Positions 5,514 through 14,180 of a stretch of DNA of 40,000 nucleotides are shown one piece after another (the stretch's first letter is position 1; the number at the start of each line of letters is the position of its first letter). The position numbers and the translations under genes are program-made. Below the pieces are notes generated by a model. That model was given only the letters and a program-made list of their open reading frames with translations. It was not told the DNA's origin and did no database searches. Source of the DNA: Halobacterium hubeiense (GTDB taxonomy: Archaea > Halobacteriota > Halobacteria > Halobacteriales > Halobacteriaceae); NCBI RefSeq assembly GCF_001488575.1, contig NZ_LN831304.1, positions 52,626-92,625 on the forward strand, read 5' to 3'.

Positions 5514-6422
5514 ATGAGCCAACCGATGTACAACCGATATTCCGACTTTGAGGAACTGCGGCCGACCGGCGAGGCGTCCCACATTCCGGACACGAGGCTG
5601 GACGAGGGGTGTGAAGGTGACCCCCGGCGGCAACGCGTCGCGACGAGCTCTGGTGGCTACCCCGATGCGCCGACGGTAACCGATGGCGAGTGCCAGTCGT
5701 GTGGGGCGTCAGTCCCAGACGGCCAGACGAAATGCCGGTTCTGTCTCACCAACCATCTCGATGGTGACGCCACTAGCACGAACGAGACAGCGTCGACGAC
5801 GTTCCTCGGCATCGTCCACCTGGTCGTCGAGTCGACCACGTTCTACGGCGCCGTGGCGAAGGGCGGCGCCGCGGCGAACCTCCTCACCGCCAATGAGGCG
5901 GAGCCGGCCGTCGACGACTACACGCTCATCTACGACCTCGACGAGGCGCCAGCGCGCCATCTGGTCGAGCAATGGCCCTCACTTCCCGACGCGGTACAGG
6001 TGTCGTCAGCGGAGGGTGAGCGGCTTCTCAGTGCCGCCCATGACCGGACTGGGTGGCACGGCCAAGAAGCGTCGGAGCGTCCGGAGCAGGCCCCGACGCG
6101 CCTCTACGACCTGCGTGGGGACGGCATCCGCGGCGCGTCGCGTCTCGACGCGGTCCTCGACGACGCCGTCGACGCGGTGTGGCTGGTTCCAGCGATGGCG
6201 CTGACCGAATCTACTGGCGAAGCTGGGGCTGATCGGCAAGAGTCGTCGGTACCGACGACGCAGGAACTCGACTGTCAAACCTGTGGAGGGGCGACCGACC
6301 ATCAGTTCAAGACCCACGAGTCGGTCCCGGATGAAGCGTGGACGGGGCAACCGATCTGGGAGTGTCGGGTGTGTGGCTCGGCTCGCTACGGACCCAGCAA
6401 AGCGGGTTATGACTCGTCTTAA
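5514..6422 (+). CDS. Hypothetical protein with two zinc-ribbon motifs
   Basis: CQSCGASVPDGQTKCRFC lies near the N-terminus and CQTCGG..WECRVCGSARYGP at the C-terminus. Composition is acidic. Confidence 0.6.
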   Translation: MSQPMYNRYSDFEELRPTGEASHIPDTRLDEGCEGDPRRQRVATSSGGYPDAPTVTDGECQSCGASVPDGQTKCRFCLTNHLDGDATSTNETASTTFLGIVHLVVESTTFYGAVAKGGAAANLLTANEAEPAVDDYTLIYDLDEAPARHLVEQWPSLPDAVQVSSAEGERLLSAAHDRTGWHGQEASERPEQAPTRLYDLRGDGIRGASRLDAVLDDAVDAVWLVPAMALTESTGEAGADRQESSVPTTQELDCQTCGGATDHQFKTHESVPDEAWTGQPIWECRVCGSARYGPSKAGYDSS

Positions 6423-6766: not shown

Positions 6767-6796
6767 GTTTATTGCCCCCCAGAAGGGGTGCGGGGG
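6767..6796 (+). promoter_or_regulatory. T-box/hairpin module a, upstream of the large TnpB-like gene
   Basis: GTTTATTGC-CCCCC-agaaGGGGTGC-GGGGG. Confidence 0.65.
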
Positions 6797-6817
6797 AGAG
6801 AACCACGAGGCCAACAA

Positions 6818-8626
6818 ATGACCCACCTCACTGAACAATTCCATATTCCCCGAGAGTATCACGCCGCCTGTTCCCGAATCCTAGAGCTCGGGCAACGCCA
6901 TCTCCGTCGATTGCTCAAGGAGGAATACTGGCGAGACAGGCACCTCGAAGCGATTCAGTCCCGCGATAGCAACGACCACACCTACGTCCGAGACGACGAG
7001 TACGAGCCGTTCGAGGACACAGACGCATACCTCTACAACCGATTCAAGCGATGTATCTACCATCGTGTTACTCGGATTCTAAAAGCTCATCGTGAGAAGT
7101 ACCGTGCCTTCCGATTCATCATCGACACTGTCGAGGAACGCAAAATCAGGCGGGTTGGATGGCAGCAGCTTCGAAGCCGCCTATTCGATAGTGGCGACTC
7201 ACCGTACATTCAGTGGAGCAATATCGAAACCGTCGTCGAGCAGCTAAACAATCATTACGACCGGCATGGCCGATTTCCTGAAGCATACACGGACCTCGTC
7301 GACTGTCCCCAGCCCGACGACACGGTTCCCTTCGGCCCGGACAGCCGTGGAGACGTCCACGATGTCCAAGTCACGGACGGAGACGTCATGGTGACGCTGA
7401 AGGCGCCGGATTCGCTATCGCCCAACTCGTATTCCGACTGGATAGAGCACGAAATACGGTTCCCAGCCCACCAACGGTTCAACGAGATGCTTGAGGCAGG
7501 GGAGCTGAAAGCGCCGACACTGCATTCCTCCGAACACGGCTATACGCTGGACGTGCCAGTGGATATTCCCGAGACCCCCGTTGACACCACTTCCGACCGT
7601 GTTCTCGCTGTGGACCTCGGCGTGAAAAAGCAGGCGACTGCGGTTGTGCTGGAAGGGTCTGAAGACAGGAAGGAGGAATCCCAGATCGCGCCACCCAACT
7701 TCGTCGACCACCACGCGAAGGACAAACTGTTTCGAGTGAAAGCCGACGCCGAGGGCATAGACAGCCGCCTTGCCGAACTCCGCCAACAGGGCAAGAGCCA
7801 TACCGAGCAGTTCGCTCACCTCCTCAACGAATATCGCCGGACGCGACGGAAGGAGCGACGTCTCCGCGACCAGATCCAGCACGATGTAGCAAATCAGCTG
7901 GTGTGGCTCGCGGCCGTTCACGAGTGCGAGACGATCGTCCTCGAGTCGCTAGGGCAGTTTGAGGCCGAAGAGACGGGTGGTGTCACGGCATGGAGCATCT
8001 CGACGTGGGCCCATGGGAAGTTACTTGAGCTGCTTCGGTACAAGGGTGACCTCCTCGGGCTCGACGTCGAGACGGTGAATCCCTGGGGGACATCACGCTA
8101 CTGTCCGCGATGTGGCGAACGCGGCAAGACCGTGAAGTCCCCGACCGATCACACCGAGTTACGCAACGGCGGCCACTTCTACTGTCCCAGCTGTGAGTAT
8201 GAGTGCGACCGAGATGTGGTCGGCGCGGTCAACGTCGGACGAAAACACCTCTCTGGGAGTCGGATGGAAACGGCGAATCCCTGTGTCTACACGGCGCGGG
8301 GAAATCACGCCAGCTTTCCATCACGCCGCACCTGCGAGCGTGTCCGTTCTGATGCCGGCACGGAGGAACCAGAACCCGTGTCGGTGCCTGGCGTTCAGTC
8401 CGCGGCCAGCAGTGAACAGGATCCGGCGAGTGGCCGTCAGACCCGATTGTCCGAGTACCGTTCTTCGTCCCTCAGTACGATACGAAGCCGGGCAGAGGGA
8501 GGACTGCAACAAAATCAGAGCAGGAAGACGGGACTGCGGTGTCCCAGCGGGAGCATTACGAGGCAGTGCTTGCTCGCCAGCACGACCGATTCCCATGAGA
8601 TGCTTCCAAATCCTGCCGAAAATTAG
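6818..8626 (+). CDS. Large TnpB/Cas12-like RuvC nuclease (IS200/IS605 OrfB superfamily) with an extended N-terminus and an Arg/Ser-rich tail
   Basis: The RuvC-I motif is RVLAVDLGVKK and RuvC-II is ETIVLESLGQF. The zinc ribbon is CPRCG..YCPSCEYECDRDVVGAVNVGRK, which includes the RuvC-III Asp. ATG 6818 was chosen over GTG 6788, which lies inside the module hairpin. Confidence 0.8.
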   Translation: MTHLTEQFHIPREYHAACSRILELGQRHLRRLLKEEYWRDRHLEAIQSRDSNDHTYVRDDEYEPFEDTDAYLYNRFKRCIYHRVTRILKAHREKYRAFRFIIDTVEERKIRRVGWQQLRSRLFDSGDSPYIQWSNIETVVEQLNNHYDRHGRFPEAYTDLVDCPQPDDTVPFGPDSRGDVHDVQVTDGDVMVTLKAPDSLSPNSYSDWIEHEIRFPAHQRFNEMLEAGELKAPTLHSSEHGYTLDVPVDIPETPVDTTSDRVLAVDLGVKKQATAVVLEGSEDRKEESQIAPPNFVDHHAKDKLFRVKADAEGIDSRLAELRQQGKSHTEQFAHLLNEYRRTRRKERRLRDQIQHDVANQLVWLAAVHECETIVLESLGQFEAEETGGVTAWSISTWAHGKLLELLRYKGDLLGLDVETVNPWGTSRYCPRCGERGKTVKSPTDHTELRNGGHFYCPSCEYECDRDVVGAVNVGRKHLSGSRMETANPCVYTARGNHASFPSRRTCERVRSDAGTEEPEPVSVPGVQSAASSEQDPASGRQTRLSEYRSSSLSTIRSRAEGGLQQNQSRKTGLRCPSGSITRQCLLASTTDSHEMLPNPAEN

Positions 8627-8697
8627 AACGGCTACGATGACTTTGAGGTGAACGATACTTGTGGAGTTCCGGGATTACGAGGGTGGGATCATGAACC

Positions 8698-8717
8698 ACG
8701 AGTTCTTACGAGAACTC
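8698..8717 (+). other. Perfect hairpin CGAGTTCT-tacg-AGAACTCG, 72 nt downstream of the large TnpB-like ORF
   Basis: Read directly from the sequence. AGAACTCG recurs at 8738..8745. It could belong to a guide-RNA scaffold or act as a terminator. Confidence 0.4.
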
Positions 8718-8925
8718 GCTACCACATCGAGGCTGACAAAGAACTCGATATCCAGGCAACGGGGTCCACAAAACGTCTCCTCCCCTGTTCGTGAAGCGGT
8801 ACGCCGATCGCGGCGGGTACGCATTCGTCAGCCTATGCGACTGGCGTTATTTCCTACTCATAGCCCCTCTTTACCCCCAGAATCGGTAGATGCTACAGCG
8901 TGTGTTTAATATCGAACCTGGATGT

Positions 8926-9393
8926 CTACCGTTCTCGGGCGATCGACGATGACTCTGAAGGGAGTTGTGGGCCGCCACAGACCGCATTGAAGTACACTTG
9001 TTCCGCGTGAATCGAACGGTTCTCTACGTCGGCTAACAGACATACCTCCTCCCCCTGATGATTCTGCAAAGCACTCATATCGAACTGACCAAAGCAGGCG
9101 AGCGTTGATTCGTTCAGCACGGTTGCCTTGTAACACCGCTGTACGTCCGTGTGGTTCGTTATTGTGACCGGAACAACGGTGTCGTTGCCCTGTTCAACAT
9201 ACACCGTGTCGGCTTCAACGCGGGCAGCTGTTCCGGACAGCCAGAACGACGCAGACTCTAGCGGTTGGACGGTGTTTTCTGACGTAGTGTGGGGTGTCTG
9301 TGCTGGTGGTGACGTCGGGGAGGCCACGGAGCCAATACAGCCCGATAGAAGGACGAGTGTTACGAGGGCGAACGTTTGGAGTCGAGGTCGCAT
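8926..9393 (-). CDS. Secreted lipoprotein, hypothetical
   Basis: The N-terminus MRPRLQTFALVTLVLLSGC carries a lipobox. GC content looks lower than in the neighbouring genes. Confidence 0.6.
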   Translation of the reverse strand: MRPRLQTFALVTLVLLSGCIGSVASPTSPPAQTPHTTSENTVQPLESASFWLSGTAARVEADTVYVEQGNDTVVPVTITNHTDVQRCYKATVLNESTLACFGQFDMSALQNHQGEEVCLLADVENRSIHAEQVYFNAVCGGPQLPSESSSIARER

Positions 9394-9495
9394 ATGTGAG
9401 TAGTGGTTGGTCTACTGGATAATGGTCTTGCCCGGACAAATGGCTCTTTGAGCGGCAGTTTGAGAACCACCCAAGCGAGAAGTGGAGTGGCCAGC

Positions 9496-10071
9496 TTAGG
9501 TTCGATACCAGGCCCAGCCAGCAACTAGAATCAGTCCGACTGCGAATACGACGAGACCAGCCGGGAGCCCCCAAAGGGGGTCCGGCTGGTTCATCTCCGG
9601 ACCGGGTCCAGTAAAGGTTACTTCGACAGTCGTCGCCCGGATGCGTGTGACGATCCACTGGGCGAGGAGACTCAATACGCCGATGATGCCGACGACACCC
9701 AGTACGTCCTTTAGCTGCTCGCTCGACATCGGCTTCGTCTCGGAGGACTGCGCCACAAGTATCAGTGGGTCATGCGTAGGGCCGTAGAGCGTCATCTGAT
9801 TGCCCGACTCTGCGTGCGCAGTTCCGACGTCCATAATTATTCCTGCCGTCTCCAGTTTCCCAAGATGGTATTGCACGTTCTGGAGTGAGGTGTCAACGTC
9901 ATCAGCGAGTTCCGAGGCGGTTCGTGGTTCCTGATAGATGGCGGCGGTAACGTCACGTGCGGTATCAGATGCTAATGCCTCGCACACTGGATCGGCGGCA
10001 TCATCACCGATCTCAATCAGTTGCTCTTCTGCTGGATTTTCACGTGTGGAAAAAGAAAAGATTCGGCTCAT
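9496..10071 (-). CDS. ArsR-like winged-HTH protein with C-terminal transmembrane segments
   Basis: PRTASELADDVDTSLQNVQYHLGKLETAGII is ArsR-type. There are two hydrophobic helices near the C-terminus. Confidence 0.7.
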   Translation of the reverse strand: MSRIFSFSTRENPAEEQLIEIGDDAADPVCEALASDTARDVTAAIYQEPRTASELADDVDTSLQNVQYHLGKLETAGIIMDVGTAHAESGNQMTLYGPTHDPLILVAQSSETKPMSSEQLKDVLGVVGIIGVLSLLAQWIVTRIRATTVEVTFTGPGPEMNQPDPLWGLPAGLVVFAVGLILVAGWAWYRT

Positions 10072-12543: not shown

Positions 12544-12651
12544 CTCAGGGCTTGACTCCGAGAGTGAAGGCCGTACGTTCCGCTAAGGAACAGGTATGCG
12601 TGGTTCGTTCGCTTCTCGCTTATATGGAGGATCAGCCACCGATCGAATTAA

Positions 12652-12670
12652 GTATATCCAAAGGATATAC
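12652..12670. repeat. Perfect palindrome GTATATCC-aaa-GGATATAC, 6 nt upstream of the DUF2080-like start
   Basis: Read directly from the sequence. It could be a TATA-containing operator or a left-end structure of the IS. Confidence 0.6.
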
Positions 12671-12676
12671 ACCGAT

Positions 12677-12832
12677 ATGGCGAATCGGTTTCAAATCGAC
12701 GGCGAGGAAGTTCTCGACGGCCAAGTCAAGGAGTTCGGGAACAGCGCCCACGTCACCGTCCCCAAACGCTGGCGTGGGGCTAACGTGAAAGTCGTCCGTA
12801 CCTCAGAACCAACCGAACAAGACGAAGAATGA
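12677..12832 (+). CDS. DUF2080-like / AbrB-SpoVT-like transposase-associated small protein
   Basis: MANRFQIDGEEVLDGQVKEFGNSAHVTVPKRWRGANVKVVR. Its stop overlaps the tnpB start (ATGA). Confidence 0.75.
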   Translation: MANRFQIDGEEVLDGQVKEFGNSAHVTVPKRWRGANVKVVRTSEPTEQDEE

Positions 12833-14106
12833 CTGATTCACAGGCTCTCATCAAGACGCTGGACTTCCAGCTCGACATCCAGAGCGATAATGAGAGCCTG
12901 CTGTACGACGCCACCCTCGAAGCGAGGTCGGTATACAACCAATCTATCCGACTCGCCAAGGAAGGTGTGGATTGGAACGTCATTCCCGACCGCGTGGCCG
13001 AGGACGCCAGCCTCGTGAAAAACACGATACAGCGCGTCGTCGCCAAAGCACTCGGTGCGATGGAGAACTACTACGAGTATGACGACTACAACAAACCCAG
13101 CCACACCAAAGACGGAACGTACCCGCTCCGGGCGAACTACGAGGAGGGGTACAACCTGTCACTCACCGACGACGGCGACGTGGCGTTCCGGATCAGCGCG
13201 AAGCCCTACAAGCACGTCAAGGGCGTCCTCGATGGTGACGACGCTCATCTCGACATTCTCAAGACCGCCCTCGAAAGCGATGCATGGACGATTGGGACGG
13301 CGGAAGCCCTGTTCCGAAACGGCAACGCCGAGCTGCACGTCAACGTAACTAGCTCCGAGGGGACCGTTCGAGACAAGGAAAATTCACGGACAGTCGTTGG
13401 CGTGGATGTCAACGAGGACAATGTGGCGCTGACTGCACTCTCCAAGGGCAGTGTCGAGGACACAGTCGTTATCGAATTTCCGGACATCAAGTTCAAGCGC
13501 CACCGCTATTTCACGATGCGGAAGCGCGTGCAGAACGCGGGGAAGGACAGCATCCACGACACGTTGGAAGGACGTGAGGAACGGTTTGTCCGCGACCGAC
13601 TCCACAAAGTGAGCCGTCATATCGTCGAGTGGAGCCAGCAGTTCGAGAAGCCGTGCATCGTCTTTGAAGACCTCAAAGAGATGCGCGATGGCCTCGACTA
13701 CGGATGCCGGATGAACCGACGCTTGCACCGCCTCCCGTTCCGCGCGCTTCAGCACTACACGTCCTACAAGGCAGCATTCGCGGGTATTCCGACGGCTTGG
13801 ATCAATCCCGAATACACGAGCCAATGCTGTCCGATGTGCGGTCATACGGAACGATCGAACCGTCACAAGAAGCGGTTCAAGTGCCAGTCCTGTTCGCATC
13901 AAGACCACGCCGACCGGAGTGCAAGCGTGAATATCGCCGTGAAAGGTATCGAAGAGCATCAAGAGTGGACTGTGCCTGCTCTCAACAGCCTTCCCACTGT
14001 GCGGACGGTGCGACGGCAGGCATCGGGGGCCGTGGACGCCCCGACCGTGACCCACGACGCCGTTCGAGGCTATCAGACCGATGGCGTCGCGGGAGTGTCC
14101 GACTAA
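12829..14106 (+). CDS. tnpB: TnpB (RNA-guided endonuclease, IS200/IS605 OrfB)
   Basis: RuvC-I is VVGVDVNEDN and RuvC-II is PCIVFEDLKEM. The zinc finger plus RuvC-III is CCPMCGH..FKCQSCSHQDHADRSASVNIA. Confidence 0.9.
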   Translation: MTDSQALIKTLDFQLDIQSDNESLLYDATLEARSVYNQSIRLAKEGVDWNVIPDRVAEDASLVKNTIQRVVAKALGAMENYYEYDDYNKPSHTKDGTYPLRANYEEGYNLSLTDDGDVAFRISAKPYKHVKGVLDGDDAHLDILKTALESDAWTIGTAEALFRNGNAELHVNVTSSEGTVRDKENSRTVVGVDVNEDNVALTALSKGSVEDTVVIEFPDIKFKRHRYFTMRKRVQNAGKDSIHDTLEGREERFVRDRLHKVSRHIVEWSQQFEKPCIVFEDLKEMRDGLDYGCRMNRRLHRLPFRALQHYTSYKAAFAGIPTAWINPEYTSQCCPMCGHTERSNRHKKRFKCQSCSHQDHADRSASVNIAVKGIEEHQEWTVPALNSLPTVRTVRRQASGAVDAPTVTHDAVRGYQTDGVAGVSD

Positions 14107-14180
14107 TCCACGGGAAGTCTCGAGGACCGTTCTCGAGACAGTTCACGGCGCCGAACGGTGAGCGGGTGGATCCCCGCTGG
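14107..14180 (+). ncRNA. Candidate 3' part of the TnpB omega/reRNA scaffold (right end of the IS)
   Basis: The hairpins are GTCTCGAG-gaccgtt-CTCGAGAC (14117..14139) and AGCGGG-tggatc-CCCGCT (14161..14178), plus the palindrome CGGCGCCG. TnpB guide RNAs are known to derive from the tnpB 3' end and right end. The true 5' end probably lies inside tnpB. Confidence 0.4.

Follow-up and report, generated by a model that had tools for sequence, protein, structure and literature searches.

An end-less IS607-derived TnpB–omegaRNA cassette of haloarchaeal plasmids as a candidate transposase-independent homing element

IS607-type TnpB nucleases and their omegaRNAs are represented by CboTnpB of the CboIStron, for which the TAM is TGGG and the scaffold ends in CGG (10.1101/2023.11.20.567912), and by ISFba1 TnpB (PDB 8iaz). 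For IS605, TnpB-dependent drive in plasmids has been demonstrated independently of TnpA activity, in the laboratory, with a whole IS and identical plasmid copies in a single cell (PMC11870625). The immobilised TnpBs in the literature consulted are mostly nuclease-dead, and the Sigma, SpoIIE, flagellin, and DppD cases are nuclease-dead regulators (PMC10691335). In haloarchaea, IS1341-type tnpB genes are accompanied by sense overlapping transcripts (PMC4615843; Rfam RF02656/RF02657). Here, we describe a TnpB gene within a 40,000-nt stretch of a Halobacterium hubeiense contig (NZ_LN831304.1, 158 kb, 59% GC), hereafter referred to as the window. It represents a natural, end-less case that is catalytically intact as judged by its sequence, with a predicted target, an allelic series of that target, and a second independent capture at the same gene.

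The cassette resembles the IS607 TnpB–omegaRNA systems of CboIStron and ISFba1 in its GG core dinucleotide, G-rich target, CGG scaffold end, 3' pseudoknot, intact RuvC and zinc ribbon, and in the serine TnpA of its relatives. Unlike them, it has neither left end nor TnpA, so that neither excision nor restorative homing is expected, and it has a larger REC, an RNA of about 345 to 365 nt, a read-through tail of about 120 aa, and no intron. Its predicted mode of action is that of an IS607 OMEGA nuclease, though the cassette has ceased to belong to IS607 itself. It shares with the IS605 drive the proposed cutting of element-free sister plasmids and the dispensability of TnpA activity, whereas it is natural, end-less, bound to one fixed site, distributed across genera, and confronted with diverged alleles. 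As with the haloarchaeal IS1341-type genes, its RNA overlaps the 3' end of tnpB, but it matches no Rfam family, and its ends are IS607-like, without terminal palindromes. Finally, it is immobilised at a fixed locus with a conserved guide, like the TldR proteins and the immobilised clades, yet in contrast to the Sigma, SpoIIE, flagellin, and DppD cases, it keeps its D-E-D residues and is predicted to act on the gene that it has itself destroyed. A TldR assignment was rejected, since RuvC is not inactivated.

The original prediction, made from the letters of the window, had proposed a 602-aa TnpB/Cas12-like nuclease with a full RuvC-I/II/III set and a zinc ribbon. The ORF is real (Table 1). An alignment of 25 proteins shows no variation at D266 (RuvC-I), E376 (RuvC-II), D466 (RuvC-III), or the four cysteines of the C4 zinc ribbon (C429/C432/C456/C459), as expected of a TnpB (OMEGA nuclease). 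The score on the NCBIfam TnpB model NF040570 lies barely above the threshold (100.3 bits, cut-off 100), while a Cas12f/type V CRISPR assignment was rejected (Cas12f2 model, 70 bits versus a cut-off of 450), and no regularly spaced repeat family indicative of a CRISPR array was present among the 20 largest repeat families of the window. An AlphaFold2 model (mean pLDDT 66; residues 481–602 disordered, pLDDT <50) matched Cas12f1 and TnpB structures over residues 1–489, the best match being AsCas12f (PDB 7wju; Z 18.2, rmsd 9.0, 360 aligned residues, 15% identity), while ISDra2 TnpB (8h1j) gave a Z of 16.2; the likeness to Cas12f1 lies in the fold, as the locus has no CRISPR array or cas genes. Residues 1–255 found weak matches only, to TnpB-like N-terminal families, in a protein atlas. 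There are 265 residues ahead of RuvC-I rather than the roughly 275 suggested before, compared with 192 (estimated at about 190) in the TnpB at 12829. No second copy of the 602-aa TnpB was found in the genome.

Table 1. Features of the TnpB cassette and its insertion site (positions in the window)
Feature	Position	Strand	Remarks
Module a and leader	6767..6817	+	From the 126-aa host gene; replaces IS left end and promoter (putative promoter role)
TnpB ORF	6818..8626	+	602 aa, IS607-type haloarchaeal long clade; ATG at the host gene's ATG position
WED/REC region	6818..7612	+	265 aa; seven predicted helices, residues 12–150 (AlphaFold2); enlarged across the clade
RuvC/zinc-ribbon region	7613..8215	+	D266 at 7613, E376 at 7943, zinc ribbon 8102–8194, D466 at 8213
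Disordered C-terminal tail	8258..8623	+	Residues 481–602; RNA scaffold read through
Predicted omegaRNA scaffold	8283..8631	+	5' end between 8283 and 8307; covariation
GG core dinucleotide, former IS607-type right end	8630..8631	+	GG in 52/52 insertions
Predicted guide, 18 nt	8632..8649	+	Matches codons 47–53 of the intact 126-aa gene behind GGGG
Decayed 3' host-gene remnant	8650..8816	+	By-product hairpin 8699–8718 inside; gene match begins at 8632

The best 120 protein clusters listed were 54 to 93% identical to the 602-aa TnpB and nearly all 572 to 607 aa long. Within the haloarchaeal clade (573–605 aa), RuvC-I lies at residue 261–267 in 34 proteins. Loci of relatives at 54 to 66% identity consist of a conserved left end, a small gene (mostly DUF2080-like), the TnpB gene, and a conserved right end with GG, embedded at almost every copy in unrelated flanking DNA. 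The right-end GG was found in 52 of 52 independent insertions, the flanks being random from the fourth base on; in the window, this right end lies at 8630–8631. At L109 and L006, a serine recombinase takes the place of the DUF2080-like gene, that of L109 scoring 212.8 bits on the IS607 transposase model (cut-off 110). Serine TnpA was found in relatives L109, L006, L037, L038, and L047, and a sister clade (34–38% identity, 573–590 aa) has TnpA and the same ends. The GG-type ends and the serine recombinase partner of the relatives rule out IS200/IS605 (IS1341 group), which would have subterminal palindromes, a Y1 TnpA, and an AT-rich target. Since mobile relatives have the same size and tail, these traits are not marks of domestication, as had been assumed; judged across the clade, large size, long tail, and missing palindromes are its norm and carry no information on domestication. 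The lack of terminal palindromes had been correctly observed, yet it is normal for an IS607-type element. When the flanks of L054 were joined, a reading frame was restored only with three G in the target, the restored frame matching an H. hubeiense gene (52% identity over 56 aa); the target should therefore be RGGG, usually followed by T, and RGGG is the predicted TAM of the clade. Most tblastx joins of this kind were noise, L054 being informative and L063 and L027 weakly so. Two family loci show additional features: L076 (1826–2480) has an extra 161-aa ORF between DUF2080 and TnpB, and on the A07HR60 scaffold (L004:6144–6900) a second, partial element copy (3' part and right end) lies directly downstream of a full one.

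A guide-RNA scaffold had been suspected within the tail of the ORF, and covariation, a pseudoknot, and low dS all point to it. In the consensus structure, a stem (8307–8313/8388–8394) encloses a loop segment (8344–8349) that pairs with the 3' end (8626–8631), as indicated by covariation, and further stems are present. Among 45 sequences, 97% of cells were paired and 25 to 31 pairs showed compensatory change, versus 32 to 47% paired cells in slid controls and none of 500 shuffles as good, though this support is flattered, as the structure was derived from the same alignment that was used for scoring. Still, so many pair types per stem would be hard to get without a real RNA structure. It is visible from the alignment only, single-sequence folding of 8283–8650 being no better than shuffles (z −1.41). 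The tail has a dS of 0.45, against 1.3–1.5 for the core (27 family members), and its dN/dS is 0.58 family-wide and 0.97 within the captured lineage; together with the pLDDT below 50, these ratios led us to reject a folded or conserved protein domain. Despite many indels, which give the tail 20 different lengths, its frame stays open in 43 of 45 sequences, and stops interrupt the remaining two frames in 31 and 45, so that translation of the tail seems to matter even though it is constrained mainly as RNA. Its description as Arg/Ser/Cys-rich holds for Ser (17% versus 5% in the core), with Arg (12 versus 9%) and Cys (2.7 versus 1.9%) raised slightly, and "non-acidic" overstated a D+E content of 11% versus 17%.

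Contigs of one metatranscriptome span 8294–8630 and none of them the coding core, though such contigs give neither ends nor strand; three RNA runs (X3, X4, and X12) yielded scattered low-depth pieces that may be DNA. An RNA-only fragment (L019) starts at the position equivalent to 8283. This fragment, on a Halocatena salina plasmid (L019:2501–2828), comprises a scaffold with an internal deletion, the right end, the same 18-nt guide, and a type-B remnant, and it lacks TnpB and the usual backbone neighbours. The perfect 8-bp hairpin that had been linked to the guide RNA exists, at 8699–8718 instead of 8698..8717, but it lies 67 nt past the right end, inside the host-gene remnant. We rejected it as a scaffold or terminator, given that an intact coding allele has this stem too and that type-B carriers lack it.

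A repeated module (6767–6796; repeat family D9, four copies in the window) ends 21 nt upstream of the ORF, in agreement with the predicted placement of the ORF behind module a. The left-end motif of the family is missing upstream, the locus contains no DUF2080 or TnpA gene, as had been noted, and no IS607 TnpA scored over the cut-off in the genome. At empty sites, a 126-aa gene lies between a 62-aa gene and DUF6735; it is present in 115 of 401 genomes of Halobacteria. This backbone protein (e.g., L018:2527–2907), which has an invariant W-G-Y motif region and often occurs in several copies per genome, gave no Pfam or NCBIfam match. The remnant in the window is 71% identical to L018 and 76% to the best intact alleles. 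Furthermore, the ATG of TnpB stands exactly at the ATG of the host gene, the first codons of both genes are alike, and the leader aligns with those of intact alleles up to and past the ATG; a single start-to-start deletion accounts for the missing 5' part of the host gene, left end, and DUF2080. Comparison shows the origin: the landing site of an IS607-type DUF2080–TnpB element was a GG within codon 47 of the conserved 126-aa plasmid-backbone gene, and the deletion then fused the start codon of the host gene to that of TnpB. With its left end lost, the cassette can no longer be moved by a serine transposase, and TnpB would be driven by backbone module a. In terms of classification, the cassette is IS607-derived and, lacking left end and TnpA while keeping the GG right end, is not a complete IS607 element.

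Copies 85 to 97% identical were found in at least seven named genera (Natrialba, Haloparvum, Halorubrum, Haloglomus, Halorhabdus, Haloplanus, and Natrinema) and in several metagenomes; Natrialba taiwanensis and Halorhabdus tiamatea SARL4B are among the carriers. Wherever flanks were readable, these copies stand behind module a without left end and DUF2080 and have a common right junction, and all carriers among the sampled genomes (8 of 401) have the cassette at one site. The earlier view that the gene has ceased to be a mere passenger of a transposon was right. In a quick tree, the captured copies form one clade inside the mobile family (stem 0.51, SH-aLRT 100). Within this lineage, the core dN/dS is 0.40 (residues 1–250) and 0.16 (residues 251–480), and judging by these ratios, the cassette is under purifying selection. 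Broken copies (L007/L008 and L107), one reduced to RNA (L019), and one replaced (L015) were also found.

In four plasmids, each from a different genus (L015:3009–4493, L016, L225, and L226; 91–100% alike), the slot behind module a holds a second, unrelated TnpB of 420 aa, preceded by a short remainder (stub) of the 602-aa ORF. It is devoid of the left-end hairpin of its free relatives, its right end lies in codon 94 of the 126-aa gene, and it evidently replaced the 602-aa cassette. That a single gene was captured into twice, independently and each time by a unit without its left end, argues against pure accident. In the window, the remnant is heavily altered at 8755–8790, where the guide of the second TnpB would match; this may be escape or chance. 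In Halolamina sp. CBA1230 (L017:3099–4337), a third TnpB (412 aa) lies in the same backbone slot, with different downstream DNA.

The block next to the right end has the length of a guide. Between remnant types, its 18 nt are identical at 18/18, 16/18, and 18/18 positions, whereas the 40 nt that follow agree at 22/40, 21/40, and 24/40 (three comparisons that are not mutually independent, with Fisher p values of 0.0004, 0.009, and 0.001). Compared with the best intact allele, carriers match at 15 to 16 of these nucleotides and at about half of the next block. The guide position is free to vary in the mobile relatives, hence its constraint is not structural. The matching site is preceded by GGGG in 85 of 87 intact alleles, and across the 87 alleles read, the window guide shows 2 to 6 differences of 18, never a perfect match. 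Most differences fall on third codon positions, several give U–G wobble pairs, and the commonest near-targets differ at +1; a TAM plus guide site with C/T differences alone is present in 4 of 401 genomes. The pHV4 allele HVO_RS02005 has 5 differences, which makes it a likely non-target. The cassette has the trait of a homing endonuclease, i.e., it sits in the site that it would recognise, and an empty allele restores the target (with the 2 to 6 differences). No site with RGGG and at most four mismatches to the guide exists in its own genome, and an exact search of viral contigs yielded no TAM plus guide match, which speaks against the regulation and host defence considered originally. Of the domesticated or recruited nuclease proposed there, the intact nuclease and a likely part in plasmid competition stand, and the evidence from size and tail falls.

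These findings led us to propose the following mechanism. TnpB would bind an omegaRNA cut from its own 3' end, and, by analogy with the biochemistry of IS607 TnpBs, the 18-nt guide and the predicted RGGG TAM would lead it to intact alleles of the 126-aa gene, carried by sister plasmids entering or sharing the cell. A plasmid cut in this way would be lost or be repaired from the carrier via flanking homology, whereby the cassette is copied. In L005 and L107, codons 1–44 of two different intact-type alleles are joined to the upstream DNA of the cassette (window 6576 onward), with short homology at the junction a few bases before the TAM. L005 runs on into a fresh 3' half, and the remnants of L005, L007, and L094 match intact alleles at 56/59 positions from +37 on, versus 50/60 in the window and 39–44/63 in type B (+37 to +95, best intact allele). 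These mosaics are what carrier-templated repair of a break at the target would leave, that is, re-capture of intact alleles. In addition, the DUF6735 genes next to the cassette do not form one clade but are interspersed with those of non-carriers (6 changes, AU p 0.034). However, mosaic flanks and DUF6735 scatter could also stem from ordinary backbone recombination, which is frequent here and offers no clean control.

With a probability of roughly 0.55, we therefore favour the reading that the cassette persists and spreads as a transposase-independent RNA-guided homing or drive element among sister plasmids, with cleavage, TAM, and expression predicted; it would probably spread through cleavage of rival plasmids instead of transposition. 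Against it stand the two or more differences of the guide from every allele read, the rarity of carriers (8) beside intact alleles (115) in the 401 genomes, and the broken or replaced copies. The latter fit a passive relic as well, i.e., a stranded IS hitchhiking on a recombining backbone, whose guide and intactness would reflect recent spread of a single haplotype. That carriers are 91 to 97% alike with similar upstream genes, that the backbone slot accepts many cargoes, and that the guide mismatches every allele read also favour such a relic. We nevertheless consider it unlikely, for the core dN/dS stays at 0.16 to 0.40 inside the lineage, and guide, scaffold, and RNA structure were kept, with a sharp boundary at +18, while the remnant decayed by up to about 35%. 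An ordinary, still mobile non-autonomous IS is hardly credible, being largely refuted: although the relatives are mobile and the right end is intact, there is no left end, the junctions are common to all captured copies with readable flanks, and the genome contains neither a further copy nor an IS607 TnpA scoring above the cut-off.

The nuclease might also have been domesticated by the plasmid as a weapon, kept since it destroys or excludes related plasmids, with copying of the cassette incidental. Its placement behind a backbone module and the second independent capture against the same gene fit this explanation, as does the observation that in both carriers holding an intact allele alongside the cassette, the guide has 5 differences (n = 2, one with a broken TnpB). 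At the level of genomes, carriers show no depletion of the target gene (intact allele in 2/8 versus 29% overall). Junctions at the target site and refreshed remnants point instead to copying into cut alleles, and a single fixed guide leaves no route for updating, which makes a weapon rather improbable, though it differs from homing mainly in the beneficiary; selfish homing or drive accounts for the observations no less well than a recruitment that benefits the plasmid. A TldR-like regulator repressing a gene would share the fixed locus and conserved guide with known TldRs (PMC13565253), and mismatched targets could be bound uncut, but the invariant catalytic triad, the lack of a guide site in the own genome at the above threshold, and a target in mid-gene rather than in a promoter render this very improbable.

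Beyond RNA-guided homing at this locus, we tentatively suggest, as a conjecture that may well prove wrong, that haloarchaeal plasmids repeatedly capture active TnpB–omegaRNA units, remove the left ends, place the units under a backbone promoter, and retain a fixed guide against a conserved gene of rival plasmids. Such long-lived homing or competition cassettes, displacing one another in one slot, would be a naturally occurring stage between the maintenance of a transposon and programmed defence. The locus bears on how TnpB first became useful outside the transposon, before any CRISPR array, and homing, exclusion, and decay are separable here in a tractable haloarchaeon. It also defines an IS607 TnpB clade of haloarchaea, for which a G-rich TAM is predicted and whose RNA family is absent from Rfam. 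We found no published report of such an end-less captured TnpB in a search with thin coverage of subscription literature, so novelty is unproven.

Several neighbouring features of the window are also of note. The gene at 5514–6422 matches the NCBIfam model "biosurfactant protein 1" (MBSP1, 454.7 bits), yet it is a conserved plasmid-backbone zinc-ribbon gene, and the name may mislead. The cargo between remnant and DUF6735 (8926–10071) consists of a lipoprotein-like ORF and an ArsR-type HTH membrane protein; cargo 5' of DUF6735 varies among carriers, type-B carriers having a 460-aa gene there. An ordinary DUF2080 and TnpB (425 aa) element, to which the TnpB at 12829 belongs, occupies 12596–14164, and its 3' end (13970–14164) matches Rfam sot2652 with 39.7 bits (E 6e-6), below the gathering score of 61.
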